Numbered from the stretch's first letter, positions 1-49,181 are shown. The stretch is 64,000 nucleotides of DNA from a virus (IMGVR_UViG_3300043435_000886); one strand, 5' to 3'. The notes: generated by a model not told the origin, from the letters alone. Translations and numbers: made by a program.

Positions 1-1767
1 TAACTGTTCTTCTAAAGACAATTCACGTCTATTACCTGATTCAGTTTTAAAAGATATTTCTCCAGCTAATAATCTATTTTGTTTATTAGTTTCTTGCACA
101 TCTCCTTCAGTAAAATATTCTAGAGATTCTAAATTTAACCCATTAGAGTTTAGTACTTCAGTTATTAATGCTTTCTTAGATAGTTTTAAATTATTAGCTT
201 CAAATGATAAACTAGTATTATTTTCTACAGCTTTAAGATAATCTTTTATTAAAGGTTGACTTAACCAATTCATTAGATATTCAGTATCTCCACCTAATCT
301 TTCAAAAGTAGAAACTACATTGGCAGTGTTTCCATTTACACCTAATAAAAATAAGAAAGGATCTTTAGCAGCATCCACAGCAGCAGTTAAATACTGATTA
401 CCTATCATCTCTGAAATCAATGTACCTCTAACATTATACCTTCCAGACAATGAAGGTACTGTAACACCATTAATTTCTAATGTATTATGATTAAAGTAAA
501 AAGGTCTACTTACATTAAAATGTAATCCAACTTGTTGAGCTAATGAATGATGTACTGATTGAGCAGCAAAAATACCTACTAAAGCTTTAGCAGCATACAT
601 TTGAGTAGTAATATCAATTAAAGTTTTAGGTTTAAACAAATCTGAATAACTCATTTTATTACTTTTACCATAGATATCATCAGCTAGTCCTTTTAAGATA
701 TCTGATGAGTTTGGAGTAAGTAGTTGTTTTAAAGTTAAATCTCCATTTTCTAATACCTGTAAAGACTGAGACATTAAATCATTTTGTAATTTCTTTTTTT
801 CAAGTTGTTCTTTAAATTGTTCACGGGTAAACTTTAATGGACCAGCAAAATCTTCAGCATCTTCTTCAGACATACCATAGTCTAAACCTTCTCTTGTTTT
901 ATCTTCCATGCTTTTAAGCATGTTATCATACATTTCATCAGCTCTAGCTAAAACTGAATCATCAACATATACAGGTTTTCCTTTATATGTAACTGTATTA
1001 GGAATGTATAAGTTAATTTTATCCACGTCAAAGTCAGCTCCAGATTGAGAAGTAATTTCTTTAGGTACAACAATTACTTGTTCCATGTATGAAGGTAAAT
1101 AACCTACAACTTTAAAATGTAAAATAGAGTTTAATCCTTGAGTTGGAATACGATAACCTATGTTAATAAGTACTCTTTCATCATCAATTATCATATTACC
1201 ATCTTTATCAGCTTTAACATAAGGTCTGTACTTTTCAGGTAACAAAATTTCAGCTGCACCTATTTTTTTATCAGCTTTATTCCACGTTAAAAATTCTAAA
1301 CCATTATTACGATAGTAAGCTATTTTAGCTGCCGGTGATATAAAACTAATACCTGTTTCAATAGCAAGAATTTCTTCATCTGTTGGATTTTTACCTATTG
1401 AAGCTAATTCCCAACCAGCTTGAGAAACTTGCACTAAAGTAGAACCGTTGATGTATTGTCTAACAATATTATTAGCAACTAAAGAGTTTATCATATTCAT
1501 TAACTTAGTTCTGTTTGGAACTGTATCAATGAATTTAGTTTCACCATCAAAAAGATAATTAATAGCTCCAATGTAATTTGTAGAAGCTCCTCTTTGCATT
1601 ACTTGTTCAAGTAAAAGCTTCTTCAAACCTTCATTATAAACTTTATCATTACGTAATACTCTATCTAAAAGAGAATTCTTTTCAATCTCAGCTAATCTTT
1701 CAATTGTTTTATAGTTTTCTTCTAACCAATTTTCAACTTCTTGAGAACCGGCACCAGCTTCAATCAT
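1..1767 (-). CDS. RNA polymerase beta-prime-like catalytic subunit (candidate virion RNAP subunit), 5' part only; the ORF runs off the window start
   Basis: Manual translation from the ATG at 1767 (MIEAGAGSQEVENWLEENYK...) gives 589 codons with no stop down to position 1. Contains IGYRIPTQGLNSILHF (cf. beta-prime NRAPTLHRLGIQAF) and about 40 aa later SGADFDVDKINLYIP (cf. NADFDGDQMAVHVP, the DPBB catalytic Asp triad). Not in the ORF track because its stop lies outside the window. Confidence 0.55.
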   Translation of the reverse strand, partial: MIEAGAGSQEVENWLEENYKTIERLAEIEKNSLLDRVLRNDKVYNEGLKKLLLEQVMQRGASTNYIGAINYLFDGETKFIDTVPNRTKLMNMINSLVANNIVRQYINGSTLVQVSQAGWELASIGKNPTDEEILAIETGISFISPAAKIAYYRNNGLEFLTWNKADKKIGAAEILLPEKYRPYVKADKDGNMIIDDERVLINIGYRIPTQGLNSILHFKVVGYLPSYMEQVIVVPKEITSQSGADFDVDKINLYIPNTVTYKGKPVYVDDSVLARADEMYDNMLKSMEDKTREGLDYGMSEEDAEDFAGPLKFTREQFKEQLEKKKLQNDLMSQSLQVLENGDLTLKQLLTPNSSDILKGLADDIYGKSNKMSYSDLFKPKTLIDITTQMYAAKALVGIFAAQSVHHSLAQQVGLHFNVSRPFYFNHNTLEINGVTVPSLSGRYNVRGTLISEMIGNQYLTAAVDAAKDPFLFLLGVNGNTANVVSTFERLGGDTEYLMNWLSQPLIKDYLKAVENNTSLSFEANNLKLSKKALITEVLNSNGLNLESLEYFTEGDVQETNKQNRLLAGEISFKTESGNRRELSLEEQL

Positions 1768-1778
1768 GTTTACAGATA

Positions 1779-4700
1779 TTAATCCATTGAAACTTCAAAT
1801 GTAGCATTAGGATCAGCTATAGCTTGGCCTTTAGAATCAAATTCAGGTTTAGTATTAGGTCTAGACATTTTAATAATAGAATCAGGACCAGTTAAACCTA
1901 TACCTTCTTTATTCATTAATGCAAGGACTTTTTCATTATTAGTACCTTTTACAGCTGCCGGTATTAAAGGATAAACAGATAACTTTAAAAAGATAGGTAG
2001 TTCAACACCATTATCTTCAATAACATCATAACCTACAGGTTTTAATGGAGGAAAAGTTACTTTCTTATCTTCTTTAGCAAGTTGCTGATTGTTCATTAAC
2101 TTGTTATATACCTTTTCCTGAGCTTCTGTCCATCTATTAATCATTTTATTGATTTCACGATAAATACCAAAATGTATTTTACCTTGGCCATCATCAACGT
2201 TATTTTTACTATAAGGATTCTTTTTACCTTCTAGACCTGTAATTTGAGTTGTTAGTTCTAGTAATTCAGGATTTGATGTTGTTTCAGTTTCTTTATAAAT
2301 CTTAACTCTAAGTTTAATAGGTGAAGGAAAGTTAACCATTGAAGAATGCCTTGTAGCTTTAATCTGATTTACTTTAGCAGGACTTAAATCATTACTTCTT
2401 GTTTCAGCAATAGCTGCTGAAGTACGTTTAAAAAAATCTTCGGGTGACTTGGTACCAGTAAAGTTACCATATAACATTTTAGATAACTCATAACCATAGT
2501 ACATTGAATTGAATGTATAAGCTTTAGCTATTTTATCCATTACAACTAACTGTTCTTCCATAGTTAATTTAGTAAAAGGATTATATTTAGATTTCTCTTT
2601 TTGTTCTTCTGTAAGAAATCTATTTACAATTTTAACCGGTATTACTGTTTTAATATAAGAAGTACCACGTCTACTAGTAGTTTCTCTAATTACACCATAA
2701 GATTTAAGTTCGTTAAATACAGTTTCTGCAGCTGTATTAACAGATTGCATGTACTTCTCATTAAATTCTTCTTGAGTAAGTACATCTTCAGCTTCATCTT
2801 TTAATAGTTCTTGCCAATATATTCTAGGATGAGTAAAGTTTTTAGTAAATTTAGTAGGAGTATTTAAAGCTAAATCTGTTTTGTATCTTTCATATAACTC
2901 TTCCAGAAACTTAGATGGGTTACCTCCGTAATAAACATACTGAGACATGTAAGCCTGTTCAGTCATAACCATACCTTCAGATGTTTTAGCATTTTTATCT
3001 CTTTCTAAAACTATACCTTGTTCTAATGATTTATCTGAAGTTCTAGGTAAACTGAATACAAAGCTACCTGGAGTAAACATATTAGTAATAGCAGTATTGT
3101 ATAAATCAACACGGCCAAGTTTATTAAAACTTTTTTGTACAGCTCTAACAGTAGCTCCACTAATAATAGTATAGTTAAACTTTCCAGCAGCTATATCAGA
3201 TTCAAGTTTAGTTTTAGCTTTAATAAATCCGGATTTAAGTTTATTGATCTTTCTAGAAAAGTAACTATGATTATGTACAGAAGATTGGCTTTCACCTTCA
3301 GCATTACGTACTTGAAGATTTCTTTCATTTTTTGTACGGGCAACAATAGTATCTAAAATTGTATTAAGATAACCTGATAGTTCATGAGTCTTTCTTAACT
3401 CAGGGTCATCTACCCAACTAATATTATTACGTGAAGTTAATGCTTCTTTAATAGCTAAAGCTGCTGCTTTTACTTCTGATGACATGTCACCTGACGTGAC
3501 ATCAAATCCAATAGCATTTAAAAACTGCAAAGGGTTTAATGGTTTTAATTCTATAGGAGATTTAATTACAGCTTTACCATTAGAATTAACTTTAATATAA
3601 GAAGATAATCTAAATTTACTTTTAGCTGCTTCTTTTACAGATTGTTTTAAAGTACTATCTAATGCATTAAAAGATAAACCATCTTTTCTTAAATCAACAA
3701 TATGGAATTCACTTTTAGCTTTAGAAAATTGCTCAAAAAAAGAAGTTCTTACTTTTTCATATAAAACTTGATTTTGTAATTGACCGTCTATAAAACCTAA
3801 ACCATTCAGTATCTGATCTTTATAAGGTAAATTACTATCTTGAATCAATTTAATTTGCTGGTCCAAAGTAGTAGAGCCTCCTAAAATGTTCATAGTATTT
3901 CTCATTGCCTCGGAGAAATTATACTGTTTAGGAATATTACCTATTAAAGGTTCTTTAGTAAATAAGCTTTTAAATAAATATACTACTTCATCTTTAGCTG
4001 TTTCTACAGCATCAAACATAATAGAAGATTTAGCTACAACACTATCTCTGTCATTTACAGCTTCTTCTTCAATATCTTCAGAAACACCTAATTGTTTTAA
4101 CCTGGAGCCTATTAAAAGAGATTTGAGATAATGATAGTTGTTTTCTAATTCAATTAATCCCCATGCTTTTAACATGTTTGGAATACCGGTATTTAAAATT
4201 GAGTCTAAGTTATCTTCAAAAAACTCTTTAGTAATAGGTGCACCTTTAGCTCTATTTTTTAAAATTAAAAAGAAACTAGATTCTAATGCATCTAACTGTT
4301 CTTGTTGATCAAGAAGACTTATGTTTTCAAATTGATTGTTCTTGGTAAGAATATGCTCTTCTACAGAAACTACTTTAGATTCTTCAGGTTTAACTTCAAG
4401 TTTTAATTTTTGATTTATTTTAATTCTTGGTGTATTCCCTGTATGATAAATAGTATATTTAGCTCCTATTTCATCAAGATAGTCTATAAATTGTGAATCT
4501 ACATTAGGCATATCTCCTACTATAAATTCAGCACCTGAATTATGAGCATTTAATATACTTTCTTTTGTAGATTTTTCTAATTTTCTATTTTTTAAAGAAC
4601 CATTTCTAGCTAACATTACTACAGCATTATTTACATCAGTATAATTATCAATTATTAAACTGTTAACTATTCCTAAAACTTTTGTTTGTTTTAAACTAGC

Positions 4701-5774
4701 TGTATTTATATCTTTATTATCTGTAGATTCATTTTTATTAATGTATTCTGCAGAAGTTCTTGTAGAAGAACTAATTGATAACCCATCTTCTTCACCAATA
4801 AAAGAATTTGCAACTTGTCTCATTGCTTTATCTTTACCATCCCCTTGAGGTGTTCCTTTTCCTTTATCTTCAAATCCTCCTTTATATCCTTGGAATCCTT
4901 CAACACTAGTAGATGGTTGTGTAACTGGTTGATTTTCAGATATAAATTTTTTAAATCCTTCTATATCTTTTTTACCTGTTTTATTTACATATTCAGAGTA
5001 TAATTGCAAAGCTTTTTGTTTTTCAGCTTGTGTTGGTAAATTATACAATTGATATTTGGTTGTATAATTTGAAACTCTTTTTTTAGATTGATTAGCTTTT
5101 TCTATTAAAGATTGATCGTATAAAACCAACTCAAGATTAGGGTCTTCTGAACTATTTATTCCTCCTATAAAAGCTTTACCGTCAATAGCTTTAACTCTAT
5201 CTTGAAAATTACCTTTTCCATTTGTAAGTTTATCATAAGGAATTGTACCTTTAAATTCGTTTTTAGCAGTAACAATTTCAGATGGATTTATTTCAAATTC
5301 AACAGTATTGACATCTTTACCAGGATAAGGATTAGTTAAAGCAAGATATAATCCTTCACCTCTTTGACCAAACCCTTTAGATCCTTTACCACTATCATCT
5401 GTTCTATAAGCTCTAATTAGATAATTACCATTAGGCAATTCAGTTATTCCAGGTTTAAATTCTGTTTTAACAGGTTTAGCTCTACTATATATATCTTTAC
5501 CTTTTTCCCATCCAGTAGGAACTGTTTCACTAAAACCTAAAGCTTCATAAATTTCATTAATTAATTCAGAATTTGAATCAATAGAAATTAAATCATTAGC
5601 TTCAATATAAGCTATGAACTTTTTATCTGTGGGTAATTTATCTGTATCATTGTCAGTTAGATACATTTCAGTGAAAGTCTTAACTTGCTGAGAAGTTAAA
5701 TTGAATTTTGCAGTTTTTGCTGCTATGTATTTAGCTACCTCTGGTAGATTTACAGATAAACATTTTTGGCCCAT
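1779..5774 (-). CDS. Giant virion-associated protein (1331 aa). Possibly the N-terminal module or subunit of a split virion RNAP. The C-terminus has weak beta-subunit-like DPBB motifs (GQGKIHFGIYREIN; VIEDNGVELPIFL).
   Basis: Long uninterrupted ORF ending 11 nt upstream of the RNAP-motif ORF, which is in a different frame. Lies in the tail-distal giant-protein block typical of crAss-like phages. Confidence 0.45.
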   Translation of the reverse strand: MGQKCLSVNLPEVAKYIAAKTAKFNLTSQQVKTFTEMYLTDNDTDKLPTDKKFIAYIEANDLISIDSNSELINEIYEALGFSETVPTGWEKGKDIYSRAKPVKTEFKPGITELPNGNYLIRAYRTDDSGKGSKGFGQRGEGLYLALTNPYPGKDVNTVEFEINPSEIVTAKNEFKGTIPYDKLTNGKGNFQDRVKAIDGKAFIGGINSSEDPNLELVLYDQSLIEKANQSKKRVSNYTTKYQLYNLPTQAEKQKALQLYSEYVNKTGKKDIEGFKKFISENQPVTQPSTSVEGFQGYKGGFEDKGKGTPQGDGKDKAMRQVANSFIGEEDGLSISSSTRTSAEYINKNESTDNKDINTASLKQTKVLGIVNSLIIDNYTDVNNAVVMLARNGSLKNRKLEKSTKESILNAHNSGAEFIVGDMPNVDSQFIDYLDEIGAKYTIYHTGNTPRIKINQKLKLEVKPEESKVVSVEEHILTKNNQFENISLLDQQEQLDALESSFFLILKNRAKGAPITKEFFEDNLDSILNTGIPNMLKAWGLIELENNYHYLKSLLIGSRLKQLGVSEDIEEEAVNDRDSVVAKSSIMFDAVETAKDEVVYLFKSLFTKEPLIGNIPKQYNFSEAMRNTMNILGGSTTLDQQIKLIQDSNLPYKDQILNGLGFIDGQLQNQVLYEKVRTSFFEQFSKAKSEFHIVDLRKDGLSFNALDSTLKQSVKEAAKSKFRLSSYIKVNSNGKAVIKSPIELKPLNPLQFLNAIGFDVTSGDMSSEVKAAALAIKEALTSRNNISWVDDPELRKTHELSGYLNTILDTIVARTKNERNLQVRNAEGESQSSVHNHSYFSRKINKLKSGFIKAKTKLESDIAAGKFNYTIISGATVRAVQKSFNKLGRVDLYNTAITNMFTPGSFVFSLPRTSDKSLEQGIVLERDKNAKTSEGMVMTEQAYMSQYVYYGGNPSKFLEELYERYKTDLALNTPTKFTKNFTHPRIYWQELLKDEAEDVLTQEEFNEKYMQSVNTAAETVFNELKSYGVIRETTSRRGTSYIKTVIPVKIVNRFLTEEQKEKSKYNPFTKLTMEEQLVVMDKIAKAYTFNSMYYGYELSKMLYGNFTGTKSPEDFFKRTSAAIAETRSNDLSPAKVNQIKATRHSSMVNFPSPIKLRVKIYKETETTSNPELLELTTQITGLEGKKNPYSKNNVDDGQGKIHFGIYREINKMINRWTEAQEKVYNKLMNNQQLAKEDKKVTFPPLKPVGYDVIEDNGVELPIFLKLSVYPLIPAAVKGTNNEKVLALMNKEGIGLTGPDSIIKMSRPNTKPEFDSKGQAIADPNATFEVSMD

Positions 5775-5784
5775 AAGATATAAA

Positions 5785-5816
5785 AAAAGATTCGTTACAA
5801 ATGTAACGAATCTTTA
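5785..5816 (-). terminator. Hairpin plus T-run terminator or attenuator between the 1498-aa and 1331-aa genes. The stem is the palindrome AGATTCGTTACA-aa-TGTAACGAATCT, which also carries a TACATTTG -7 promoter box.
   Basis: 12-bp perfect stem, extendable to 15 bp. On the minus strand it is followed by TTTTTT. Confidence 0.55.
5791..5813 (-). promoter_or_regulatory. Internal promoter candidate: TAnnTTTG -7 box (TACATTTG) within the conserved motif TTACAAAWGTAACGAAT, 24 nt upstream of the 1331-aa gene start
   Basis: Same motif and same 24-nt spacing as at 12219-12240. Confidence 0.45.
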
Positions 5817-5818
5817 AA

Positions 5819-8800
5819 TTAAAAACCAAAATCATTTACATCTTTTGTAGGATTACCTGCATCACAAACTTTATCGGTAACTTCTTCTTTAGTTTTAATA
5901 GGATCTATTTGAACAAATCTTATTTTCTTGATAAATTCATTATGTGCTTCAGGATTCTGAGCAGCTATCATATCTGTTGCTGGAACACCTGGATTTATTG
6001 AACCGTAAACTTCAGTAAATTTCTTAACTGCTTCTGCTCTAGGTATGAATAAAACAATACTTTCTCCAATAGCAGTATAGTGTTTAGATACGATGTAAAT
6101 TAATTCTTCATCTGTTAACTCTTTTAATAGTTTTTCATCTTGTAGTTTAATTCTTTTTAAAATACTTTCTTCAGTAAATACAGGTGTATCATTAGGTTTA
6201 GGTTTAGGTTTAGGTTTATCTGGAGCTTTAGGTTGAGCTTGAACTGTAGGAGATGAACTTAACATTACATTATCACCTTCAGTTCCTAAAACCATATAAG
6301 CATTGGAAAACTTAAACTCTTTACTTACATCAGTACCTATTCTTGGAGAATCAGAATCAAATAAAAAGTTAAGGTAAGATTCATATGGAGTACCTTCAGC
6401 AACACCGTCTTCAGATACAGATTTAGGAAAACTAAAACCATCTTTAAAAGAAGAAGCTGCATAGTTTTTTAACTGATATCTTAAACCGGCAGGATGATTG
6501 TCATTAAAAAACTTAATGATATCAGCTTTTGTAACTGTTGCCGGGTCAACTACTTTGTACCCTAATTTAAGTTTATATTGACCATCTTCAAAAAATACAT
6601 TTACACGTTTCTTAGAATTAGTGCCGGTAGATTTACCATAAATATTTAACAAAGAGTCGATAATACCAGGACCTTTAGGTCTATCTTTACTATCAACACC
6701 ATCTTTAACAAATCCTGAAGAAAATAGATTTACTTCTTTACCATTCAAAGTTATCTTGTTACTTTGCTTAGTTACAAAGTAATGTAAAGAATCGACTAAA
6801 CCATTTAAATCTTCATCGGAGAATTCATTTTTATAAAAAGGCATTATAACTTCTGATTCACCATTAGCTTTAATATCATTAAATACTAAATAACCTCTTT
6901 TAAAATTAGGATTAGATGTTACAAATTCTTCAGTTTGAAACTCATTACCGTCTTTCTTAATATATTTAACAGTTACAGAATAAGTACCATCCCCGTTTTC
7001 AGTTACATTTTGAACTGTACCTAATCCAGGTACTAGTTTCATAGAACCTTTAATCGGAATAATAGAACTATGTTCAACTAAAGACTTTAAGTTTTTAACT
7101 ACACGGCCTATTATATTCTTATTAGGATGTTTACCATTAATATTAGGTATTCTACTTAATATCCCACCTGATTTGGAAACTACAGGAGAATACATAGGTT
7201 TACTATTTTTTAAGATAGTGTCTATGATAAACTTTCTCTGTTCAATTAACTTAATTCTATTTGCTTCATGTTGAGCTTCTTTTTCTTCACGAGTTAACTT
7301 GTCATTCTTTTCTATCTGATCATACTCTACTGTTTCATTATAATAATTAATATCATGCATGAAACAAGTAATAGCTTTACCGTTTCTAGTTACAGGTTTA
7401 CCATTTTCATACAAAGTCATTTTAATTAATCTGTAAGCTGGATTAGTTTTTAAATCAGCTACAGTAAGAGGTTTATTATATTTAGCATTACGTTTAGAAT
7501 TAACTTCATCAGCTATTTCTTGAAGCATGCTTTCATTAGGTACTTCACTTACATCTAATTGCCAAGAGAAAGTTTTAGCAGGTTTACCTTCAAAACTAAC
7601 TCCAGGAGTGTTCTCTGGATTAGCCATAAACCTAGATAAATCTTCATTTTCTCCATTTAAAATATAATCACCTTCTTCATTTAAATCATAACCTTTACCT
7701 CTGATAAATCTCCATACACTACCGGTAGATGCAAAAAAGGATGTCTTTTTAGGAGCACTTTCAGTTCTTGGATTATATGTAGGTTTATCACCTTCTTCAT
7801 CTTCTTCTTCATCAAATTCAGATAAATCTGTTTTAGTAGGAGATATGGTATAGTCATTACCTAATTCTTCCATGGTAACTTCTTTGCCAGTAGCTACTTC
7901 TATAATTTTATGAACTCCATCAACTACAGTGGTAATGTATTCTTTAACATTTCCTTCAGCATCTGTAACTTGAATAGTATGAGGATTCTTTGCAGAATGC
8001 TTAGCTTTAAATTTATAGTTTAAATCTTTTATAGCTTTAGTTTCGTCTATTTTAGATTGCATTTCAGCTTTAAACTCATTTAGTTTTTCAGCCTGAACTT
8101 GTCTTTCTAATTTAGCCGGGTCCTCTAATATGTCTTTGTATTGTTGAATTAACTGTTTGTTTGTAACGTTAAGTTCTTTATACTTATCATATTGATTCTG
8201 AAGATTAGCTTTTTCAATAGGGTCTTCAAGAGCATCTAAAGTAGTAGTCAAAGCTTGATTTTTAAAAGCTTCTTTATTTTCTTTTACTCTTAAATCAGGA
8301 TTACCTGCTTTAGTTCTTCTAGTATCTTTTGGAAAATAAACTTCTTGATGAGCAGCAGCATATTCTTCTAAAGCAGGTAAAATCTCAGGTTTAATTTTAC
8401 TTAATTCTGAATTAATAGCTTTTTGTGATGCAAGAATATCAGCAAATTTCATCATAGCCGGTTTAGATAAATTAGCAAAACCAGGTAAATTCAAAGCTGT
8501 TTCATAAGACTTTTTAAAATCTTCAGATATTTTTAAAGCTTCAGCACTTTCTTTTTTAAACTCTTCTAAATCTTTAGGTGTAACTTCAACTTCACTTAAT
8601 TTTTTATTTTGTTGTAAAGCTTTCATAGCTTTTAATTCATCTAAAGTAATGTCTGTTTTTTGAAGTTTAGCTTTATAGTTATCATATTCACCTACAGATA
8701 AATTAAATAATGCTTCATTAAGAATCTGTTTATTCTTAGCTGCATTATATAACTCTTCGTTATTTTGTCCTCTAGCATATTCTTTTACAGATTCAAGCTG

Positions 8801-10315
8801 ACTGTTATTAGTTAACTTTTCAATGTAATCCGGATTAATTACTTTTTGAGTACCCCCTTCAGGATTTTTGTACTCAGTATATAAAGCATTTTCATCTATT
8901 TTAAAATTAGCATCTAAATCTTTCTTTAAATTATTATAGTCTTTCCAAATACTAGCTAATTGTTTTGGGGTATCGTAGTTTTTGTAACTATAAAGAGAGG
9001 ATGCACCTCCTCCCATTAGTCCCCCAAGTATCCATGACATTTGACCTTCTTCAGTTGTAAAAGATTTACCGAATTCTGAAGGTACACTTCTTGTAATGAA
9101 ATCTAACCAACCTTCTCCAGAAGCTACAGTATCTTGAGAACCTTTATTGAAAGCATATTGTAACCCTTCTTCTCCACCTTCAAACACGGCATTCTTACCA
9201 AAAGCTGTTATTACATCTATAGCTTTATCATATTTACCTACTTTATCAGCACCGGCTCTAAAATATTTACTTACTGCTCCACTATATTTACCAACAGGAG
9301 CACCTAATTTAGGTAATACTTTATCAAATACACCTAACATTTTAACATTCTGTATATAATCAGGTAATGATAATGCAAGATTAGCCATGAATGACATGTT
9401 AGCTGCTTGTTCAGCTTCATTTTCTGAATAACCGTTTTGCAGCATTTCATCTTTAGTACCTTGTCTTTCCAGTGCAGTTTCACCAAACCTACCAATTAAA
9501 GTAGAAGTAAAACCAGTAACTCCATCTGTAATTTTTTTAGCTCTAGCTATTTGAGCTGCTTCAGCTGAAGCTGTTTGACCTGCAATAGACATAGCTTCTG
9601 CACTAGCACCGTAACCGGCACCACCCATAGCTTTATTAATAGATTTATAAAAAGCAGTTCCTGGGCCTAATTTTCCAGCAACAGCTGTTGCTGCTTTAGC
9701 TCCACCAAAAAGAAAACCTAATCCTTGAGCAAATTGATCTAATCCACCTAGCCCTGCATTTCTTGCTACTAACCCTTCTTTATCAGCATCTTCAGTATAA
9801 ACAGGAGTAATCTCATCTATTAGTTCTTTAGTTTTACCTAATGTTTTAAATATTAAGTTATCAGATATCCAAGCAATAGGGTTATCATTATCAACATCAT
9901 CAGTAGCATTGTATAAAGCTTGACCAACACTTGCTAAAATCATTGCAGCTGCTCCATAAGGGTTAGCTACCAATGCAACTGGAGCATAAGCTGCCCCTGC
10001 TGCAGTACCAAAATGTATAGCAGTATTAACTAAAGCTAAAGCATCAGATTGTTTAGAATCACGGTATGTATTAATACCTTTATCTAAATCATACCCTGTA
10101 ATACCTTCATCATAAACAGAATCATTTGGAAACTGTTGACCTACACCTCTAGCTACTCCAGCAAATGCATTAGATTGATTAATAGCACTTCTTGCTCTAG
10201 CATAATCATAAGCAGCATCAGCTCTTTTACGTCTAAGTTGTAACTTAGTACCGTATCCTTGTTGTATATGGTCTTGTGTTTGACCTAACAAATCTTCAAT
10301 TTCTTCGTCTTGCAT
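5819..10315 (-). CDS. Giant virion internal or ejection-type protein (1498 aa) with Gly/Ala-rich hydrophobic, glycine-zipper-like segments
   Basis: 1498-aa ORF. Contains segments such as TAIHFGTAAGAAYAPVALVANPYGAAAMILASVGQALY and LGFLFGGAKAATAVAGKLG. Followed by a hairpin plus T-run on the minus strand. Confidence 0.45.
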   Translation of the reverse strand: MQDEEIEDLLGQTQDHIQQGYGTKLQLRRKRADAAYDYARARSAINQSNAFAGVARGVGQQFPNDSVYDEGITGYDLDKGINTYRDSKQSDALALVNTAIHFGTAAGAAYAPVALVANPYGAAAMILASVGQALYNATDDVDNDNPIAWISDNLIFKTLGKTKELIDEITPVYTEDADKEGLVARNAGLGGLDQFAQGLGFLFGGAKAATAVAGKLGPGTAFYKSINKAMGGAGYGASAEAMSIAGQTASAEAAQIARAKKITDGVTGFTSTLIGRFGETALERQGTKDEMLQNGYSENEAEQAANMSFMANLALSLPDYIQNVKMLGVFDKVLPKLGAPVGKYSGAVSKYFRAGADKVGKYDKAIDVITAFGKNAVFEGGEEGLQYAFNKGSQDTVASGEGWLDFITRSVPSEFGKSFTTEEGQMSWILGGLMGGGASSLYSYKNYDTPKQLASIWKDYNNLKKDLDANFKIDENALYTEYKNPEGGTQKVINPDYIEKLTNNSQLESVKEYARGQNNEELYNAAKNKQILNEALFNLSVGEYDNYKAKLQKTDITLDELKAMKALQQNKKLSEVEVTPKDLEEFKKESAEALKISEDFKKSYETALNLPGFANLSKPAMMKFADILASQKAINSELSKIKPEILPALEEYAAAHQEVYFPKDTRRTKAGNPDLRVKENKEAFKNQALTTTLDALEDPIEKANLQNQYDKYKELNVTNKQLIQQYKDILEDPAKLERQVQAEKLNEFKAEMQSKIDETKAIKDLNYKFKAKHSAKNPHTIQVTDAEGNVKEYITTVVDGVHKIIEVATGKEVTMEELGNDYTISPTKTDLSEFDEEEDEEGDKPTYNPRTESAPKKTSFFASTGSVWRFIRGKGYDLNEEGDYILNGENEDLSRFMANPENTPGVSFEGKPAKTFSWQLDVSEVPNESMLQEIADEVNSKRNAKYNKPLTVADLKTNPAYRLIKMTLYENGKPVTRNGKAITCFMHDINYYNETVEYDQIEKNDKLTREEKEAQHEANRIKLIEQRKFIIDTILKNSKPMYSPVVSKSGGILSRIPNINGKHPNKNIIGRVVKNLKSLVEHSSIIPIKGSMKLVPGLGTVQNVTENGDGTYSVTVKYIKKDGNEFQTEEFVTSNPNFKRGYLVFNDIKANGESEVIMPFYKNEFSDEDLNGLVDSLHYFVTKQSNKITLNGKEVNLFSSGFVKDGVDSKDRPKGPGIIDSLLNIYGKSTGTNSKKRVNVFFEDGQYKLKLGYKVVDPATVTKADIIKFFNDNHPAGLRYQLKNYAASSFKDGFSFPKSVSEDGVAEGTPYESYLNFLFDSDSPRIGTDVSKEFKFSNAYMVLGTEGDNVMLSSSPTVQAQPKAPDKPKPKPKPNDTPVFTEESILKRIKLQDEKLLKELTDEELIYIVSKHYTAIGESIVLFIPRAEAVKKFTEVYGSINPGVPATDMIAAQNPEAHNEFIKKIRFVQIDPIKTKEEVTDKVCDAGNPTKDVNDFGF

Positions 10316-12201
10316 TATTTTAATATATGGGGGTCAACAACATCGTTTAACATGTCAATTGTAAATTCAACTGGATTAATACCATCACCTAAAACATAAT
10401 CTTTAGTTTTCTGTCTATTACCATTATTATCTACATTAATAACTGATATTCTACCAGGTGAAGGGACATATTTAGTCTTACCTGAAGCATCTTTCTGAGG
10501 TATCATTCTAGCACCTTTTTTATTTACAACAAATCTAGTAACACCTAAAGTCTGACCGGTTTGTGGATCTAAATTAGGTATTTCAACATCACCGTAAGTT
10601 GTAGCTTTAGTAGGATCAAGTAAACCTTGAACAACATTTTTAACTGCTTTCATTCTAATTTGAGCATAGTTGTTTTCATTTTCTTTTCCACCTACATCAC
10701 CTAAAGCAGTTTTGTAAACTTTATCTCCAGTTCCAATAGTTATTTCACCTGTATACGGCACCATAGTAAAACTACCACTCTTCCAAGCATCTTCAATTAA
10801 AGAAGGGTCAGTAATACGATTACCTTCGTTATCATAATAAGGAGTATCTTTTAATAAAGCTTTTACATTAGCTGTAGCTGTTTCTCTTCTTCCTTTATCA
10901 GCAATAGTATATTCAGTCATTAATACTTTAGAAGCATTTACTTTTTCACCTTGGAACTTATTAAATATTTGTTGTTGAGTCATTTTATCACCAGCATACA
11001 TCTTTTGGTAATAAGGTGGAACAAGAGCATCAAAAGCATTAGCAGGAGTACCATTTTTTTCAACAAAATCATGATAAGATTTTGAGTTAGCAGATGCACT
11101 TTTTTTAGAAAAAGATACTGAATTAAAAGAACCATCAGGATTAAAAGCAGTTGAATTAATATCTTTAGTTTGATTATTAATATCTTCTACAGATTTATCT
11201 ACAGCTACTTTATTACTTATACCAGCAAGAGCATTAGGATTAAATAAATCTCCAGCACCAAATCCGGCCATGTAAGAATTAGTAGCATTAGCATCAAAAG
11301 ATGCACCTGAAGAATATTGTTCAGAAGTGTAAGCAGCTTTATTAGACCATGCATTAGCAGCATTATCTAAAGTTTGCTTTTTAATCATTTCTTTAACTTG
11401 ATTTCTATCAGAACCAGGATGGTTTTTCATGTAAATATCAGTATCTCTTTCAATCATAGATTGAATTGGAATATTCTGTTGCATCATATCACTAATACCT
11501 TTATGTACTTCGTTAAAATCTACTTTTTCTTTCATTACACCTGTTTCAGTATTATAAACACCGGATTGAATAGCAGTATCACCGTTAGGTAGTTTTTGGC
11601 CTGCTTGAACAAGTTTCATATTTTTAGATTCTTTACCGTATTTATCTGCTAACCAACCACTTGCATATTGTTGATAAGCAGCATTTACATCAGCATCAGC
11701 AACAATTTTAGGAGCTGTTATTGGTGTAAAGTCAAAAGTATTTCTTTCAGCATCGTAACCAGTTTTATTTACCATGTCATTTAACATATCAATATAATAC
11801 TGTTTAGTTTCGTCTTTACCTAAAGCTTGATTTAAAGAAATCTTTTCTTTAATATCTTTTATAGCAGTAGCTCTTTCTTGAAATTGTTTTAAATTAAAAG
11901 CAGCATTATTAGCCATAGACATAGTTTTCCAACCTACATTATGTAGTTCATTGTTTTTAATCATTTCATCTACTTGAGGTTGAAATGCACCAACATAGTC
12001 TTTTACTTTTTGCCTTTCTAATGGGTCAGCTATTTGTTCAGCTTGTTTTGCTAATTCTTGAAACTTAGTCAAGTTTTCATATGAAGTGTCATATCTTTTT
12101 TGCAACGTGTCTGAAGTTTGTTGCAGTTGTTCTAATGGAATTTCACTACCTTTAATCTTAATATTAGGATTAACGTAAGCATCTTCAAATTGAATAGGCA
12201 T
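10315..12201 (-). CDS. Virion structural protein (hypothetical, 628 aa)
   Basis: Long ORF; its ATGA stop-start overlaps the next gene. A TACTTTTG -7 box lies 24 nt upstream of the start. Confidence 0.5.
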   Translation of the reverse strand: MPIQFEDAYVNPNIKIKGSEIPLEQLQQTSDTLQKRYDTSYENLTKFQELAKQAEQIADPLERQKVKDYVGAFQPQVDEMIKNNELHNVGWKTMSMANNAAFNLKQFQERATAIKDIKEKISLNQALGKDETKQYYIDMLNDMVNKTGYDAERNTFDFTPITAPKIVADADVNAAYQQYASGWLADKYGKESKNMKLVQAGQKLPNGDTAIQSGVYNTETGVMKEKVDFNEVHKGISDMMQQNIPIQSMIERDTDIYMKNHPGSDRNQVKEMIKKQTLDNAANAWSNKAAYTSEQYSSGASFDANATNSYMAGFGAGDLFNPNALAGISNKVAVDKSVEDINNQTKDINSTAFNPDGSFNSVSFSKKSASANSKSYHDFVEKNGTPANAFDALVPPYYQKMYAGDKMTQQQIFNKFQGEKVNASKVLMTEYTIADKGRRETATANVKALLKDTPYYDNEGNRITDPSLIEDAWKSGSFTMVPYTGEITIGTGDKVYKTALGDVGGKENENNYAQIRMKAVKNVVQGLLDPTKATTYGDVEIPNLDPQTGQTLGVTRFVVNKKGARMIPQKDASGKTKYVPSPGRISVINVDNNGNRQKTKDYVLGDGINPVEFTIDMLNDVVDPHILK

Positions 12202-12218
12202 ATTTTGTTTATAATAAA

Positions 12219-12240
12219 GTATTACAAAAGTAACGAATTA
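12219..12240 (-). promoter_or_regulatory. Internal promoter candidate: TACTTTTG -7 box within TTACAAAAGTAACGAAT, 24 nt upstream of the 628-aa gene start
   Basis: 17-nt motif shared with 5791-5813 with one mismatch. Bacteroidetes sigA -7 consensus TAnnTTTG. Confidence 0.45.
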
Positions 12241-12243
12241 AAC

Positions 12244-12280
12244 TAAAAGAAAAAATCCTGTAGTTTCCTACAGGATTTTA
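12244..12280 (-). terminator. Rho-independent terminator after the 975-aa gene (AAAATCCTGTAG-gaaa-CTACAGGATTTT followed by TTCTTTT)
   Basis: 12-bp perfect stem, T-rich tail on the minus strand. Confidence 0.6.
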
Positions 12281-15208
12281 TTAAGCTTTTTTACGTTTTG
12301 GGTTATAAAGTTTAATATTTACTTTAGTTCCTTTTGAGTCATCTCCTCCTGGTATATCTGTTCCAGCACTACCCCATGCTGAACCTGCTGCTCTTGGTAA
12401 AGATAAATATTTATTCATGTTTTTCTCCTTGTTCCAATACTTGTACCATTCAGAAGCACTTTTTTTCACTTTACCTTCTTGTTTTTCATTATAGTTAATT
12501 GTTTCATCAACATAAAGAGTATCTCCTACTTGTTTTGAGTTAAATTTACCTAATGAATTTCTGATGTTTTTTGTATCATTCCATTGATCTGAAACTTTAT
12601 TCATCCCTTTATCATTGTACTGGCTGTAATCAGTTACACTTTTATATTTATTTGAAAGTTCAAGTATTTTTTGTTTTTGACTTTCTGTAAAATCATCTTC
12701 TGTGACTTTAAAATTAGTACCTAATTGATTATTAATAATATCTTTAGCTTCTATTCTTAAAGAAGTCGGTATTGCATATTTAGTCCCATCTGATAATTTA
12801 TTTATAAAATTACTAACTTCTTTTTTACCTTTATTTGTAAACTTATTAGAAGCTTCGGTAACTATTTTAGAACCAATACTTAAATTTGTTTTAACCTTAT
12901 CTTTTAAATTTTCAGCTTCTGAATTAAATTTAGATACTGCTTCTTTACCTCTTCCTATGTAATCTGGAGATACAGCATTGTTTTGAGCTAAACCAAAAGC
13001 ATTAGGATTAAAAGAAGGTTTCTTTTTAACTTGAGCTAATTCAGTAGGTACAACATCAGTATTATCAGAAGACATATTTTGTATAGCTGTTTTAGGGGCA
13101 TTTACATTTTTACGTATTCTATCAGCATTAACTACAACTTCTCTATTAGGATTAGCCCATGCTTTTTGAGGCCAAGGACCACCTGGTTGTTGAGCTTCTG
13201 TTTTAAGTTTAAGTTTTTCTACATTAGTAGGAGCAGGTTTATTAATACGGTCACCTTTAATTACTACTTCACGATTAGGGTTTTGCCAAGGTTTTTGTGG
13301 CCATGGCCCTGATTGATTAGCTTGAACATTAGGTTGATTTGGAACATTACCTTTCCATTCAGAAACACCTTTACTTAAATCATAACGTTGGTCAGCTTTA
13401 GGTTTTTGCATCTCTGTTTGAAATTTAAGATGATCATTTATCATGTCATCCATATTGGTAGCTGGAGAATTAAACTTACCGTCTTTAATACGTGAATTTA
13501 TGTACCCAGTATCTTTTACAGCAGGATTAACAGCAGGATTAACAGAAGGTTGTGTGGAAAATGAAGCTACTTCTTTAGCTTTAGTAGAACTTGTAGGTTT
13601 ACCTTCTAAAGCTTTTTTAGTTGCTTCTTTCTGTGATTTAGTAGGAGCAGTTCCAAGTGTTTCTTTCCATAATTGAGCAGCATATAAATCCTTTTCACCT
13701 CTAGGTAATACTTTATAATCTAATCCAGTTATTTTAGATTTAAAAGTATTTTGTGTTGGTTGCCCTTCTTTGTTTAAATAAGAAGCATATTCAGCATCCA
13801 TTTGAGCAGCTCTGTCTACAGTTTTATCTTTTAATACAGAATCAAGTTTTTGTTTAAACACACTACCACCATCAGCATACTTCATACCACCCATAGCTTT
13901 TACACCTGCCATAGCTCTGTCATATTCTTGTTTAGTAATTTGACCTTGTGCTAACATATAATCAGCAAGAGGTTTATTACCTTTAATTGCATCTCTGTTT
14001 ACAGTAGAAACATTAGCGTTAGCCATAATACCAGCAGCATCTAGTTGATTCTGTCTATTAGTCATGTTATTAAATACATCATTAGTCAACTGAGTTTCAT
14101 TAGCTATTGCTGCATTTCTTTGTTTAGCTAACCATTGATTATAGCCAAATTCATTAGCCATGTTTTCCTGAGCAATTCCAGCATTAGTTAACTGAGATTT
14201 CATAGCGGCTTCTGCTTGTCTTGCTTTATATTCATTTATTAACCCTGTATTTGTATTTTCTTGACCTTGCATTACTTGCCCTCTTCTTTGTAATTGTTGA
14301 GCACGAATAGCACCTAAGTTACCAAGCATAGCTGAAGTATTACCTCCACTTAATCTTAAACCTTCTCTAGCAGCAGCAGCATCAGCATTTAATGCATTAA
14401 GTTCAGCAGAATAATCTACTTTATCAGGAGCAGCTCCTGCTGAAAGATAAACGTTATTTAATACATCAGGTCTATCAACATTATTAATGTTTCTATTTTG
14501 TCTAAAAGTAGAAGCCATGCCTGAACCTAAAGCACCTACTTCTCCCCATCTTTTAAATCCTTGTTTAGGTGCATTTCCACCAGTAGCAGTATTTGCACTA
14601 TTTAACTTCTTAACTCTTTCTTGTTCAGCTTGTACTGCTTTATCATCTAAATTCATGTAGTTATAATCATAAGGATTTGTATAACCACCGGCTTGAATAA
14701 AAGGAGTAGGTATGTAAGAAGGTTTTTTTTGTAATGCTTCAACTTTAGGAGTGTAGCTAGGTTTATTGTCTAAAAGAAAAGGTTGAGCAAAAGATTGATT
14801 GTTTTGATTTCTAACAAAATCTACTGCTTGAGGTATTTGTTGAGGAATAACTGTTTCTTCTATTGGAGGATTTTTAAAAGGGTCTTTATCACCTCCACCA
14901 AAATACTTATTTAAATAACCACCATAAGCCATTTCAGGTTGACTCATAGGTAAACCTTCAGGTTGCATTGGCATTTGTGGTTGTTCCATACCTTGCATTG
15001 GTTGTTCCATAGGCATTTGAGGTTGTGGATTTTCAGCTTCCTTCATTGCTTCTTGTTTAGCAAATAGATCATCTAATTGCTTTTCAAGTAACATAATAGT
15101 ATTATCTCTAGCTTGAGAAGCAGGTCTACTTTTAGCTTTTTCAATTAAAGCTTGAAGAGGTTTTGCTACATCAGCAAATGTTCTAAGTTTGTTAGTTTTT
15201 AATTTCAT
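12281..15208 (-). CDS. Virion structural protein (975 aa) with a Pro/Gln/Met-rich low-complexity segment and an internal tandem repeat of about 40 aa
   Basis: Low-complexity run QPQMPMEQPMQGMEQPQMPMQPEGLPMSQPEM. Repeated units GPWPQKPWQNPNREVVIKGDRINKP and GPWPQKAWANPNREVVVNADRIRKN. A terminator hairpin follows the stop. Confidence 0.5.
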   Translation of the reverse strand: MKLKTNKLRTFADVAKPLQALIEKAKSRPASQARDNTIMLLEKQLDDLFAKQEAMKEAENPQPQMPMEQPMQGMEQPQMPMQPEGLPMSQPEMAYGGYLNKYFGGGDKDPFKNPPIEETVIPQQIPQAVDFVRNQNNQSFAQPFLLDNKPSYTPKVEALQKKPSYIPTPFIQAGGYTNPYDYNYMNLDDKAVQAEQERVKKLNSANTATGGNAPKQGFKRWGEVGALGSGMASTFRQNRNINNVDRPDVLNNVYLSAGAAPDKVDYSAELNALNADAAAAREGLRLSGGNTSAMLGNLGAIRAQQLQRRGQVMQGQENTNTGLINEYKARQAEAAMKSQLTNAGIAQENMANEFGYNQWLAKQRNAAIANETQLTNDVFNNMTNRQNQLDAAGIMANANVSTVNRDAIKGNKPLADYMLAQGQITKQEYDRAMAGVKAMGGMKYADGGSVFKQKLDSVLKDKTVDRAAQMDAEYASYLNKEGQPTQNTFKSKITGLDYKVLPRGEKDLYAAQLWKETLGTAPTKSQKEATKKALEGKPTSSTKAKEVASFSTQPSVNPAVNPAVKDTGYINSRIKDGKFNSPATNMDDMINDHLKFQTEMQKPKADQRYDLSKGVSEWKGNVPNQPNVQANQSGPWPQKPWQNPNREVVIKGDRINKPAPTNVEKLKLKTEAQQPGGPWPQKAWANPNREVVVNADRIRKNVNAPKTAIQNMSSDNTDVVPTELAQVKKKPSFNPNAFGLAQNNAVSPDYIGRGKEAVSKFNSEAENLKDKVKTNLSIGSKIVTEASNKFTNKGKKEVSNFINKLSDGTKYAIPTSLRIEAKDIINNQLGTNFKVTEDDFTESQKQKILELSNKYKSVTDYSQYNDKGMNKVSDQWNDTKNIRNSLGKFNSKQVGDTLYVDETINYNEKQEGKVKKSASEWYKYWNKEKNMNKYLSLPRAAGSAWGSAGTDIPGGDDSKGTKVNIKLYNPKRKKA
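13120..13330 (-). repeat. In-frame tandem direct repeat (about 120 nt, 40 aa) inside the 975-aa gene
   Basis: ggccaaggaccacctggttg at about 13181 vs ggccatggccctgattg at about 13301. Protein repeat GPWPQK(P/A)W(Q/A)NPNREVV. Confidence 0.55.
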
Positions 15209-15215
15209 TGTTTTA

Positions 15216-15824
15216 TTATTTACCAGGATAAATTAATCTGTCACTAAATATTCTTGTACCTGAAGGTAAGTTTGTTTTAATACCACCGTTATTATGTTTA
15301 GGGCCTTTAAATTGTATATTCTGACCATTAGGAGTAATAGCTGATTCTCCACCTTCAACTTCTTCTTGAGGATTAGGGTGGTTTCTTGATATAGTTTTTA
15401 AACCACCTTGAGCATATAAACTTTGAGTATTAGTTTTAATACCTAAATTAGAATTATCACTTCTACCCATTAAAGAAGCATAAGCTAATTGATTACGTTT
15501 AGTTTGTTCAAACTGTGCTTGTTTAGCATCTTGTTCTTCTTTATCATAATAACCTTTAACTGCACCTCCAAGTAAACCTACTCCACCACCAATAGCTGCA
15601 CCCCAAGGACCAAACATAGCACCCATTGAAGCACCTTGAGCACCATAGTTTAAAGCTTCAGATAACATAGGATTGGTATTTTCATCAGTAAATCCTTGAG
15701 CTATATTTAAAGCAGGAGCAATCATATTACCATTTTTAATTCCGGCACCTACTTTTGTATCACCAAAAGCATGAGTAGGTATAAATTTACCATTTACATA
15801 TTTGTATTTAGGTACGTTTTTCAT
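15216..15824 (-). CDS. Gly-rich hypothetical virion protein (202 aa)
   Basis: ORF containing GPWGAAIGGGVGLLGGAVKGYY. Confidence 0.5.
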   Translation of the reverse strand: MKNVPKYKYVNGKFIPTHAFGDTKVGAGIKNGNMIAPALNIAQGFTDENTNPMLSEALNYGAQGASMGAMFGPWGAAIGGGVGLLGGAVKGYYDKEEQDAKQAQFEQTKRNQLAYASLMGRSDNSNLGIKTNTQSLYAQGGLKTISRNHPNPQEEVEGGESAITPNGQNIQFKGPKHNNGGIKTNLPSGTRIFSDRLIYPGK

Positions 15825-16210
15825 TACTTTAAGTTTTTAAGTTTATACAATGTTGAAAAAATCAAAGTTTTAACTTCATCCATCTGATTTTGTAAATCCG
15901 AATAAGTTGTTGTTAATCTAACTTGCTCTACAAAAGTAGCTAATTTAATTAAATAATTAACAGGGGTAGAATCATTTATGGTTGGTTCAGGTATATCTAT
16001 TGAGTTATTTTCCCAAGCAGATGTTTCAAATAAAGTATCAGCTAAATCTCCTACTGTTTCATAATACTTTTGAAGAGCTTTATGTTCAGAATAAGATTTA
16101 GACTTTAAATGAAATTTATGTATAACTGTTACAGATTCAAGTAGTTCTGCTATTAATTGTGGTATTGTGTTCCTAGAAGTACTAGGTTTAACTCTGTCTT
16201 TTAAACTCAT
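15824..16210 (-). CDS. Hypothetical protein (128 aa) with a weak Dps/ferritin-like helical motif (IHKFHLKSKSYSEHKALQKYYETVGDLADTLFE)
   Basis: Start/stop overlap with neighbouring genes. The motif resemblance to Dps HWNxxGxxFxxxHE...DxxAER was read by eye only. Confidence 0.4.
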   Translation of the reverse strand: MSLKDRVKPSTSRNTIPQLIAELLESVTVIHKFHLKSKSYSEHKALQKYYETVGDLADTLFETSAWENNSIDIPEPTINDSTPVNYLIKLATFVEQVRLTTTYSDLQNQMDEVKTLIFSTLYKLKNLK

Positions 16211-27894: not shown

Positions 27895-27925
27895 AAAAAG
27901 AGGGTATTTCTACCCTCTTTTAATT
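27890..27925 (-). terminator. Terminator after the 427-aa structural gene (AAGAGGGTA-tttc-TACCCTCTT), flanked by an A-run and a T-run so potentially bidirectional
   Basis: 9-bp GC-containing stem. On the minus strand it is followed by TTTTTTTGTT. Confidence 0.65.
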
Positions 27926-27939
27926 TAATTGATTGATAA

Positions 27940-31194: not shown

Positions 31195-31217
31195 TTGTCT
31201 GTTTTGTCTTTTTATTG

Positions 31218-31246
31218 TAAAAAAGTAGGGGATTTCTCCCCTACTT
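31218..31246 (-). terminator. Rho-independent terminator after the major capsid protein candidate (AGTAGGGGA-gaaa-TCCCCTACT followed by TTTTTTAC)
   Basis: 9-bp stem, T-run on the minus strand. Confidence 0.65.
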
Positions 31247-31252
31247 ATATTT

Positions 31253-33824: not shown

Positions 33825-33902
33825 CTTCGTTTCAAATTTAAAATTAATTTTTCTAATTTTTATTGTTGCAATATAACTATGTTAGTATACTTATATTATA
33901 TG

Positions 33903-36233: not shown

Positions 36234-36243
36234 TTGTACAAAA

Positions 36244-48336: not shown

Positions 48337-49091
48337 AACGTATGTTTTTAGAGGTAAAAAACAAAGTCAGAGAAAGATTTAATTCTTTTTCTGGCTTACC
48401 TTTATTCTTTTTATCTAAAAGAATAGCCAAATTAGAAGGTTAAAAGTCTTAAATCCATTCAGGATAATAAATAAACTGAATGAAGTTGGTACTTCTCAAA
48501 ACACAGCCTTGCTTGCTAAAAAGGTGTAGGGATATGAGATTAAATGTGGATATTAGCAATGAAGCATTATCAACGAGGTTAACAGAAAACTACGTAAGTA
48601 GAAGTCCTTTGAATTGTAATCGTGTATAAACTGTTCCTTTAGTGGTATTAGTAAACCAATACAATTCATAAAAATCTATCAGTAATGGTAGATGTGTGTT
48701 CTTCCTTGAGAAAGAAGATTGATTAGAAGGGGTATTTTATAACGAACCGAATCACACAATTGAGTTCTCAGCAAGTAGTTATAATACAAAAAGAATATCA
48801 TAGGTCGTAAGCCCTAAAAGATAACTACGTGACCCTACTTTTATACAAATATTTAGTGTTTACACAAATTCGGGTAAGACAAGAGGGTGCTAATAAACAA
48901 CTACTGATTAATACTAAACAATAACTATTCTGAGCTAGGCAGATAGTAAAGGTAAATATTAGTTACATAGTTATCTCACAGTCTAAGATGTGAGTGGTTT
49001 AGGTTAATTGAAGAGGGGTTGAAATACCTAACAGTTTGTAATGAACTCAGAATAAGCTTTACTTCTTAGAAAGCAGTAGTTGTTTTTTAAT

Positions 49092-49165
49092 GGTCAGGTA
49101 GCTCAATGGTAGAGCAAGGGGACTTAAGTAAGCCTTGGTTACAGGTTCGAGTCCTGTCCTGACTA
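49092..49165 (+). tRNA. tRNA-like gene with canonical acceptor, D and T arms but a non-canonical anticodon arm; possible pseudo-tRNA or tRNA-like element
   Basis: Acceptor GGTCAGG/CCTGACT. D arm GCTC-AATGGTA-GAGC. T arm ACAGG-TTCGAGT-CCTGT. The central 25 nt AAGGGGACTTAAGTAAGCCTTGGTT do not form a 5-bp stem with a 7-nt loop. Confidence 0.4.
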
Positions 49166-49181
49166 CTAAATTAAAAGAAAT

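Follow-up and report, generated by a model that had tools for sequence, protein, structure and literature searches.

Two short gaps in the virion operon of an uncultured crAss-like phage, here called gap 1 (positions 5775-5818) and gap 2 (12202-12280), are each likely to hold an intrinsic terminator together with a promoter for the primary sigma factor of the host, which would restart transcription of the cargo-region genes and of the virion RNA polymerase (RNAP) gene. The arrangement is real but ordinary, having already been mapped, or being visible, in other crAss-like phages. All positions refer to the window, i.e., the whole 64,000-nucleotide stretch that was analysed (IMGVR_UViG_3300043435_000886), and both gaps are read on the minus strand. 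The original prediction, that each gap carries a strong minus-strand hairpin with a T-run and unites a terminator with a promoter of Bacteroidota type ahead of the RNAP and cargo genes, was borne out: both hairpins are present and are the two best minus-strand terminator-like sites within positions 1-20000 of the window, whilst the combined reading is favoured by conservation of the -7 box, by covariation in gap 2 and by parallels in phi14:2 and in Bacteroides phages.

To judge by its proteins, the window belongs to a divergent member of the Crassvirales. A crAss muzzle domain was found with Pfam in the gene at 16207-21243, and major head (major capsid), portal and large terminase proteins were found with PHROGs; the capsid protein matched 142 crAss-like phage records, at identities of 31% or less. 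Neither a megablast search with positions 1700-12400 nor a tblastn search with a 628-amino acid (aa) protein encoded there gave a match among GenBank phages, thus indicating a phage without a close cultured relative, and a protein-pattern scan of IMG/VR returned no relative. The virion operon runs along the minus strand from approximately 41764 to the start of the window, and small and replication-type genes occupy the plus strand between 41924 and 64000. A Shine-Dalgarno-like 4-mer occurs in 5 of the 72 genes of the window, and the gene leaders are rich in A, with A at -3 in 61%; leaders of this kind, A-rich and without a Shine-Dalgarno sequence, are characteristic of how Bacteroidota initiate translation (Baez et al., 2019; PMC6847099). 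Together with the Crassvirales hallmark genes they hint at a Bacteroidota host.

No family was found in PHROGs or Pfam for the four large proteins encoded beside the gaps. In the direction of transcription, a 975-aa gene (12281-15208, minus strand), situated downstream of the muzzle gene and predicted to be ended by the gap-2 terminator, is followed by gap 2 and by a 628-aa gene (10315-12201, minus strand) which would be served by the gap-2 promoter and has 29 homologues in metagenomes, with synteny in all. Next comes a 1498-aa virion/cargo-region gene (5819-10315, minus strand), the stop codon of which lies 3 nt ahead of the gap-1 hairpin. The gene downstream of gap 1 and its promoter is, on its homology, the virion RNAP gene. 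Its N-terminal 1331 aa (1779-5774, minus strand) were assigned from synteny and from a 92% relative, L019, which has one 2378-aa ORF at this position; its continuation in another frame (1-1794, minus strand) contains DFDVD, runs off the window and matches both the structure of phi14:2 gp66 (PDB 6VR4; E = 9e-17) and 109 crAss-like phage records, the annotated ones often being labelled "putative RNA polymerase". The gene is thus interrupted in the window (1700-1850, minus strand), the 1331-aa ORF ending at a TAA (1779-1781) with the DFDVD part in the other frame, and L019 has 70 additional nucleotides at this point (its positions 19655-19724); the interruption is either a true deletion or fission, or else an assembly error.

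Promoters of the Bacteroidota primary sigma factor (sigma-ABfr) consist of a -33 TTTG and a -7 TAnnTTTG element (Baez et al., 2019; PMC6847099, citing Bayley et al., 2000, and others). For Flavobacterium johnsoniae the -7 element has been refined to TAHHTTTG (T-12 A-11 H H T-8 T-7 T-6 G-5), transcription starts 4-5 nt downstream of this box, and the -33 element is weak even in this species (Baez et al., 2019; PMC6847099).

Gap 2 reads TAA-T-AAAATCCTGTAG-GAAA-CTACAGGATTTT-TTCTTTTAGTTTAATTCGTTACTTTTGTAATACTTTATTATAAACAAAAT-ATG on the minus strand. Directly after the 975-aa gene, folding and covariation both point to an intrinsic terminator hairpin, AAAATCCTGTAG-GAAA-CTACAGGATTTT (12252-12279, minus strand), with a 12-bp stem followed by UUCUUUU; the 51-nt segment that contains it (12240-12290) folds at -17.5 kcal/mol (z = -4.6). 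The T-rich tail TTCTTTTAGTT (12241-12251, minus strand), which would be the U-tract, sits at approximately -33 of the downstream promoter. The -7 box of this promoter, TACTTTTG (12225-12232, minus strand), lies 23 nt ahead of the ATG at 12201 and within the gap-2 copy of the shared 17-mer, ATTCGTTACTTTTGTAA (12222-12238, minus strand). By the 4-5-nt rule (PMC6847099) transcription would start at approximately 12220/12219, giving a predicted leader of 19 nt (12202-12220, minus strand).

Gap 1 is only 44 nt long and reads TAA-ATTT-AAAGATTCGTTAC-ATTT-GTAACGAATCTTT-TTTTATATCTT-ATG on the minus strand. The perfect palindrome that had been predicted here is present, in fact as 14+14 bp about a 2-nt centre (5786-5815). 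As RNA it would form a putative intrinsic terminator stem-loop of the 1498-aa gene, AAAGATTCGTTAC-ATTT-GTAACGAATCTTT (5786-5815, minus strand), with a 13-bp stem and a 4-nt loop at -15.6 kcal/mol (z = -7.6), a value matched by none of 200 shuffles. A run of seven T that closes the stem on its 3' side and extends beyond it (5782-5788, minus strand; the count includes the last three stem bases) would be both the U-tract of the terminator and part of the predicted RNAP mRNA leader; read on the plus strand, the hairpin leads into AAATTAAAAA and not into a U-tract. The stem is AT-rich, with GC at 4 of its 13 pairs, and it is not conserved in relatives, so that it is the structure itself which argues for a terminator here. 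The -7 box, TACATTTG (5798-5805, minus strand), lies within the hairpin, where it takes up part of the loop and of the 3' arm, and ends 23 nt ahead of the ATG at 5774, i.e., at the same distance as in gap 2, as had been anticipated for the two sites of the window. A candidate -33 region (5821-5830, minus strand), which falls in the last bases of the upstream gene and reaches its TAA stop, consists of TTTG (5827-5830), 21 nt upstream of the box, and then TTTTT; it is weak (TTG-N21-box). The start would fall at approximately 5793/5792 by the same rule (PMC6847099), predicting another leader of 19 nt (5775-5793, minus strand), and the gap-1 copy of the 17-mer is ATTCGTTACATTTGTAA (5795-5811, minus strand). 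That a -7 box should lie inside a terminator loop within a 44-nt spacer is the only slightly unusual point of the arrangement, and it changes no concept.

In the comparison with Bacteroidetes sigA promoter models that had been suggested, both boxes proved to be perfect sense matches to the -7 TAHHTTTG of the Bacteroidota. The predicted 19-nt leaders are within the usual range, they have no Shine-Dalgarno sequence and the region upstream is AT- or T-rich, with a TTTG in gap 1 as described. Unlike typical Bacteroidota promoters, gap 2 and most relatives have a T-tract in place of the -33 element, and the sites of the window, with starts placed by rule, lie inside a phage operon, directly after or within a terminator. 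Speculatively, the T-tract of the gap-2 terminator, or that of the end of the upstream gene at gap 1, may act as a weak -33/UP-like region.

A comparison of the metagenome contigs that carry the 29 homologues of the 628-aa protein, in which synteny and gap sizes are conserved, provides the main evidence for selection on these elements. Eight lineages have a full gap 2 (W, which is that of the window, L020, L022/L027, L024, L025, L026, L028, and L031), their 628-aa homologues being 32-57% identical to that of the window over the aligned part, and four have gap 1 (W/L019/L029, L020, L022, and L027/L034); scanning metagenomes with aligned N-terminal RNAP sequences added only L034, of the same type as L027, and no new lineage. 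TAHHTTTG is kept at gap 2 in all eight full-gap lineages whilst the flanks differ, a ninth lineage (L032) having only a degenerate box with a one-base variant, TTAATTTG. At gap 1, TA[CT]ATTTG is kept in all four lineages, 23-25 nt ahead of the ATG, and again the flanks diverge. The box is therefore present in 12 of 12 gaps, each instance fitting the TAHHTTTG rule of Baez et al. (2019); per-gap shuffles gave P = 0.02-0.19, and the product, ~1e-14, sets an upper limit to the significance, given that the lineages share ancestry. In the eight gap-2 lineages the order is constant: a hairpin, with GAAA or AGAAAT as its loop, precedes a T-run, after which comes TAHHTTTG. The stem has both-sided compensatory changes at 6 of 11 pairs, which indicates selection on the terminator. 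Each of the clade's 12 sites has a T-tract at approximately -34 to -26. The distance from box to ATG is less constrained: a fixed spacing of 24 nt had been proposed, and relatives show 8, 8, 8, 9, 18, 19, 23 and 23 nt at gap 2 (the window included) and 23, 25, 25 and 25 nt at gap 1, so the proposal does not extend beyond the window.

The two gaps have more in common than the box. The shared 17-nt motif, ATTCGTTACWTTTGTAA, occurs as had been reported, being found without mismatch only at 5795-5811 and 12222-12238 in the window, and further matches there require three mismatches, which is chance level. When the 35 upstream regions whose gap is 30 nt or longer were aligned on their ATG (595 pairs, with 300 composition-preserving shuffles), the gap-1/gap-2 pair gave the best 17-nt identity of all pairs, 16/17 in register, and 16 was reached in 1 of the 300 shuffles. 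It is thus unlikely that the shared motif arose by chance, although the probability is not astronomically small (P ~0.003-0.01), and the promoter consensus alone is not a full explanation of it. One reading of this extra identity is that the gap-1 palindrome and a gap-2 half-site, the 9-mer ATTCGTTAC, form an operator over the -7 box for a dimeric protein of phage or host, so that the promoter would be regulated rather than constitutive. The in-register identity speaks for this, as do the centring of the perfect inverted repeat on the box, the exact occurrence of the 9-mer in each gap (gap 1 having two copies, inverted with respect to each other) and a weak, all-A/T quasi-palindrome about the same box at gap 1 of L022 (-6.9 kcal/mol, z = -3.7).

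We nevertheless consider an operator unlikely, as the features on which it would depend are confined almost entirely to one lineage. The gap-1 hairpin is identical in L019 and L029, but folding and alignment showed that the palindrome is not kept in the other three gap-1 lineages: that of L020 has another, insignificant hairpin downstream of the box, L027 has no hairpin, and L022 has only the quasi-palindrome just described, which tells against the palindrome as a conserved dimeric binding site. The ATTCGT upstream of the box is likewise missing at gap 1 of L020, L022 and L027 and from six of the seven other gap-2 lineages, L020 alone having AATTCG just upstream of its gap-2 box. Gap 2 itself has a single good half-site. 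The 9-mer has no intergenic copy elsewhere in the 64-kb window, its sole other exact occurrence being antisense within a coding region (60985-60993); a search for a regulon with one mismatch allowed gave 22 matches against 13 expected, with no extra exact intergenic copies, and among the syntenic relatives only the window's own lineage (L019, L029, and L030) has the 9-mer. A scan of IMG/VR for the exact 17-mer returned 18 single, unrelated matches (L001-L018), which is chance level and means that the 17-mer is not a widespread motif. The claim that it defines a motif class is not supported, whereas the motif search and conservation check which had been proposed for it succeeded in one part: the box is kept in relatives, and it is the extended motif that lacks further intergenic copies in the window. 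Moreover, the TTAC-N4-GTAA core of the palindrome is partly forced by the box and the common TA after it, and the hairpin with its seven U is fully explained as a terminator. The extra identity (ATTCGT upstream of the box and C at box position 3) is, on this distribution, lineage-specific and no separate functional element; it is most simply put down to copying or conversion between the two promoters, or to coincidence; another possible explanation is that TTAC-N4-GTAA seeded a quasi-palindrome, which was then completed by templating.

An extension of the operator, in which the gap-1 sequence would be terminator, promoter and dimeric-regulator site (or extrudable cruciform) in one perfect 28-bp palindrome, is very doubtful. 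If true, it would amount to a switch coupling cargo read-through to RNAP re-initiation, and through the half-site copy in gap 2 one factor would control both cassettes.

The statistics of the box within the window need to be read with caution. TAHHTTTG is common at a GC content of 30%, with 63 copies on both strands, 30 of them in sense orientation within genes, so that a box alone is no proof unless comparative data back it. The composite pattern TTG-N19-21-TAHHTTTG is not significantly enriched in the window either (9 against 5.2 +/- 2.3 expected); window-wide enrichment is therefore unusable as evidence, and the case is carried by the comparisons. These figures, and the AT-rich stem of gap 1, would be compatible with the hairpins being RNA-level elements, such as stabilisers of 3' ends after processing or RNase sites, within one transcription unit in which the boxes are non-functional. 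Such a reading is very unlikely given that the box is invariant against diverging flanks in the 12 gaps, that a lineage with an inserted gene has kept its cassette intact upstream of the insertion, that the order of hairpin, U-tract and box recurs in crAss001-type and DAC15-type phages, with the box also in the phi14:2 type, and that both hairpins run straight into U-tracts, as terminators do.

The insertion concerned is in L025, where a GIY-YIG homing-endonuclease gene (9375-10001, within 9288-10001) lies between the gap-2 cassette and the 628-aa homologue and has taken the promoter-proximal place. In L028 (9917-10000) the gap-2 hairpin is identical to that of the window, although the promoter segment differs and the protein encoded downstream shares only 51% identity across half of its length, a pattern suggesting that the cassette has been a site of mosaic recombination. 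In L024, L025, L026, L028, L031 and L032 a single ORF of approximately 4300 aa replaces the 1498-aa gene, gap 1 and the RNAP gene, and these ORFs give weak AAA_30/helicase matches. The 1498-aa protein shows marginal but collinear homology to their N-terminal part (E = 0.002-0.01), and gap 1 with its promoter is present only in the lineages with a split giant gene (W/L019/L029, L020, L022, and L027/L034). Tentatively, gap 1 may thus have originated through gene fission.

The closest experimental parallel is phi14:2, in which the virion RNAP makes the early transcripts, for which no common motif was found (Drobysheva et al., bioRxiv 10.1101/2020.03.07.982082; Nature 2021), whilst the middle and late genes are sensitive to rifampicin and hence depend on the host RNAP (bioRxiv 10.1101/2020.03.07.982082). 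Four middle promoters, P070, P075, P108 and P110, upstream of g070, g075, g108 and g110, were mapped by primer extension, and similar motifs were described in other crAss-like phages upstream of the homologues of RNAP, gp069, IHF, gp092 and portal genes (bioRxiv 10.1101/2020.03.07.982082). Against this background the weakest alternative, that the 17-mer marks a phage-specific promoter class read by a phage-encoded or phage-modified host polymerase, is highly improbable: crAss-like phages do bring their own virion RNAP and the two sites agree beyond the host -7 consensus, but in phi14:2 the virion RNAP reads motif-less early genes and it is the host RNAP on which this block depends, relatives lack the extended motif, the sole part conserved across them is TAHHTTTG, an ordinary -7 element of the host primary sigma factor, and no sense box lies within 40 nt of any gene start in the plus-strand half of the window. 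All three alternatives, operator, RNA-level elements and phage-specific class, fit the conservation pattern less well than a terminator with a host promoter. A search for repeats in the plus-strand half yielded no convincing other shared promoter motif.

In the phi14:2 genome all four mapped middle promoters read TTG-N20-TAnnTTTG after an A-tract, P070 being located within the cargo-gene block, in a gap of 77 nt that follows g071, a 1340-aa gene in the position of the muzzle gene; the phi14:2 portal gene and g092 also carry TATATTTG. Phi14:2 and the window share their phage order, the virion/cargo gene block and the box, and the boxes of the window are found upstream of the virion RNAP gene (gap 1), the cargo-region genes (gap 2), the portal gene and the gene at the gp092 position. 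They differ in that phi14:2 has a clear A-tract and TTG-N20, whereas in the window a TTG occurs at gap 1 only and an A-tract at neither site, and in that the 77-nt gap of P070, which was read rather than folded, has no preceding terminator hairpin. The 628-aa gene was not supported as an orthologue of phi14:2 gp070 (E = 0.25), so the parallel to P070 is positional and not orthologous; nor did comparison support the 975-aa gene as an orthologue of g071. With regard to the other boxes of the virion operon, one at 36239-36246 (minus strand) is only 5 nt ahead of the portal ATG, so that the mRNA of the portal gene may have no leader, as with the portal gene of phi14:2; another (33833-33840, minus strand) is 8 nt ahead of the gene at the gp092 position, a sense box at 39632-39639 (minus strand) is near the start of a virion-operon gene, and a TTG-N19-TATATTTG (41781-41810, minus strand) places a box 16 nt ahead of the first gene of the operon.

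Two cultured Bacteroides phages, PhiCrAssBcn1 (crAss001-like) and DAC15, provide a further parallel to gap 1: immediately ahead of the RNAP gene each has a GC-rich hairpin and its T-run, followed by TATATTTG or TACTTTTG, i.e., a terminator hairpin and a box ahead of the RNAP start. Their gap is 140-150 nt, with the parts well separated and a leader of approximately 32-34 nt, whereas gap 1 packs everything into 44 nt with the box in the hairpin loop. As in Rho-independent terminators generally, the stem-loops of the window come right after a co-directional stop codon and are followed by a U-tract on the coding strand only; gap 1 departs from that class in having GC at so few pairs of its stem and in that the loop and 3' arm double as promoter. 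The virion RNAP promoters of phage N4 are hairpins with stems of 5-7 bp and a 3-nt loop, upstream of early genes. Gap 1 likewise has a DNA inverted repeat beside a gene, and the phage would likewise inject an RNAP of its own, but this is a resemblance only, the stem being 13 bp with a 4-nt loop and situated before a virion gene of middle or late type, and on stem size and gene class the gap-1 hairpin was rejected as an N4-type promoter.

From the sequences and these parallels we infer that initiation and termination actually take place at both sites, by the host RNAP and from the start positions given. Each terminator hairpin with its U-tract would attenuate read-through from the upstream virion genes, and a host promoter of Bacteroidota type (-7 TAHHTTTG with a weak T-rich -33) would then restart transcription approximately 5 nt after the box, on a leader of approximately 19 nt without a Shine-Dalgarno sequence. 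The gap-2 promoter would serve the 628-aa and 1498-aa cargo-region genes, and the gap-1 promoter the virion RNAP gene. Terminator and promoter stand side by side in gap 2 and would overlap in gap 1, where read-through RNA, containing both arms and the U-tract, would form the hairpin and terminate, whereas RNA started at the promoter has the 3' arm only and so cannot form it. Presumably this allows the cargo and RNAP genes to be dosed or timed independently of the upstream virion genes, cf. the middle-class P070. By analogy with phi14:2, the cargo and virion RNAP genes of this phage probably use the host polymerase.

This provides a usable transcription map for an uncultured and very divergent crAss-like phage, with predicted restarts for its cargo and virion RNAP genes. 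As the order of a terminator and then TAnnTTTG before the RNAP/cargo block recurs across distant Crassvirales lineages, it can serve as a practical annotation rule, and the same recurrent order gives a hint of a Bacteroidota host.

Several further features of the window deserve mention. Hairpins with T-runs but without a -7 box are found in the gaps at 27895-27939, 31195-31252, approximately 45900-45958 and 60393-60422; they are GC-rich, one of them comes after the major capsid gene, and they are probably plain attenuators or terminators. In the plus-strand half, two stretches, 43717-45032 (1.3 kb) and 48630-49091 (0.46 kb), have no ORF of at least 50 aa; the early region of phi14:2 has highly transcribed non-coding intergenic stretches (Drobysheva et al., bioRxiv 10.1101/2020.03.07.982082). 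ARAGORN predicted a tRNA-Phe(aaa) at 44534-44610 (plus strand), without confirmation by Rfam, and a second tRNA at 49092-49166 (plus strand), which Rfam confirmed at 54 bits; the latter was assigned a 4-base anticodon, "taag", i.e., an enlarged anticodon loop, inside which lies the palindrome ACTTAAGT.
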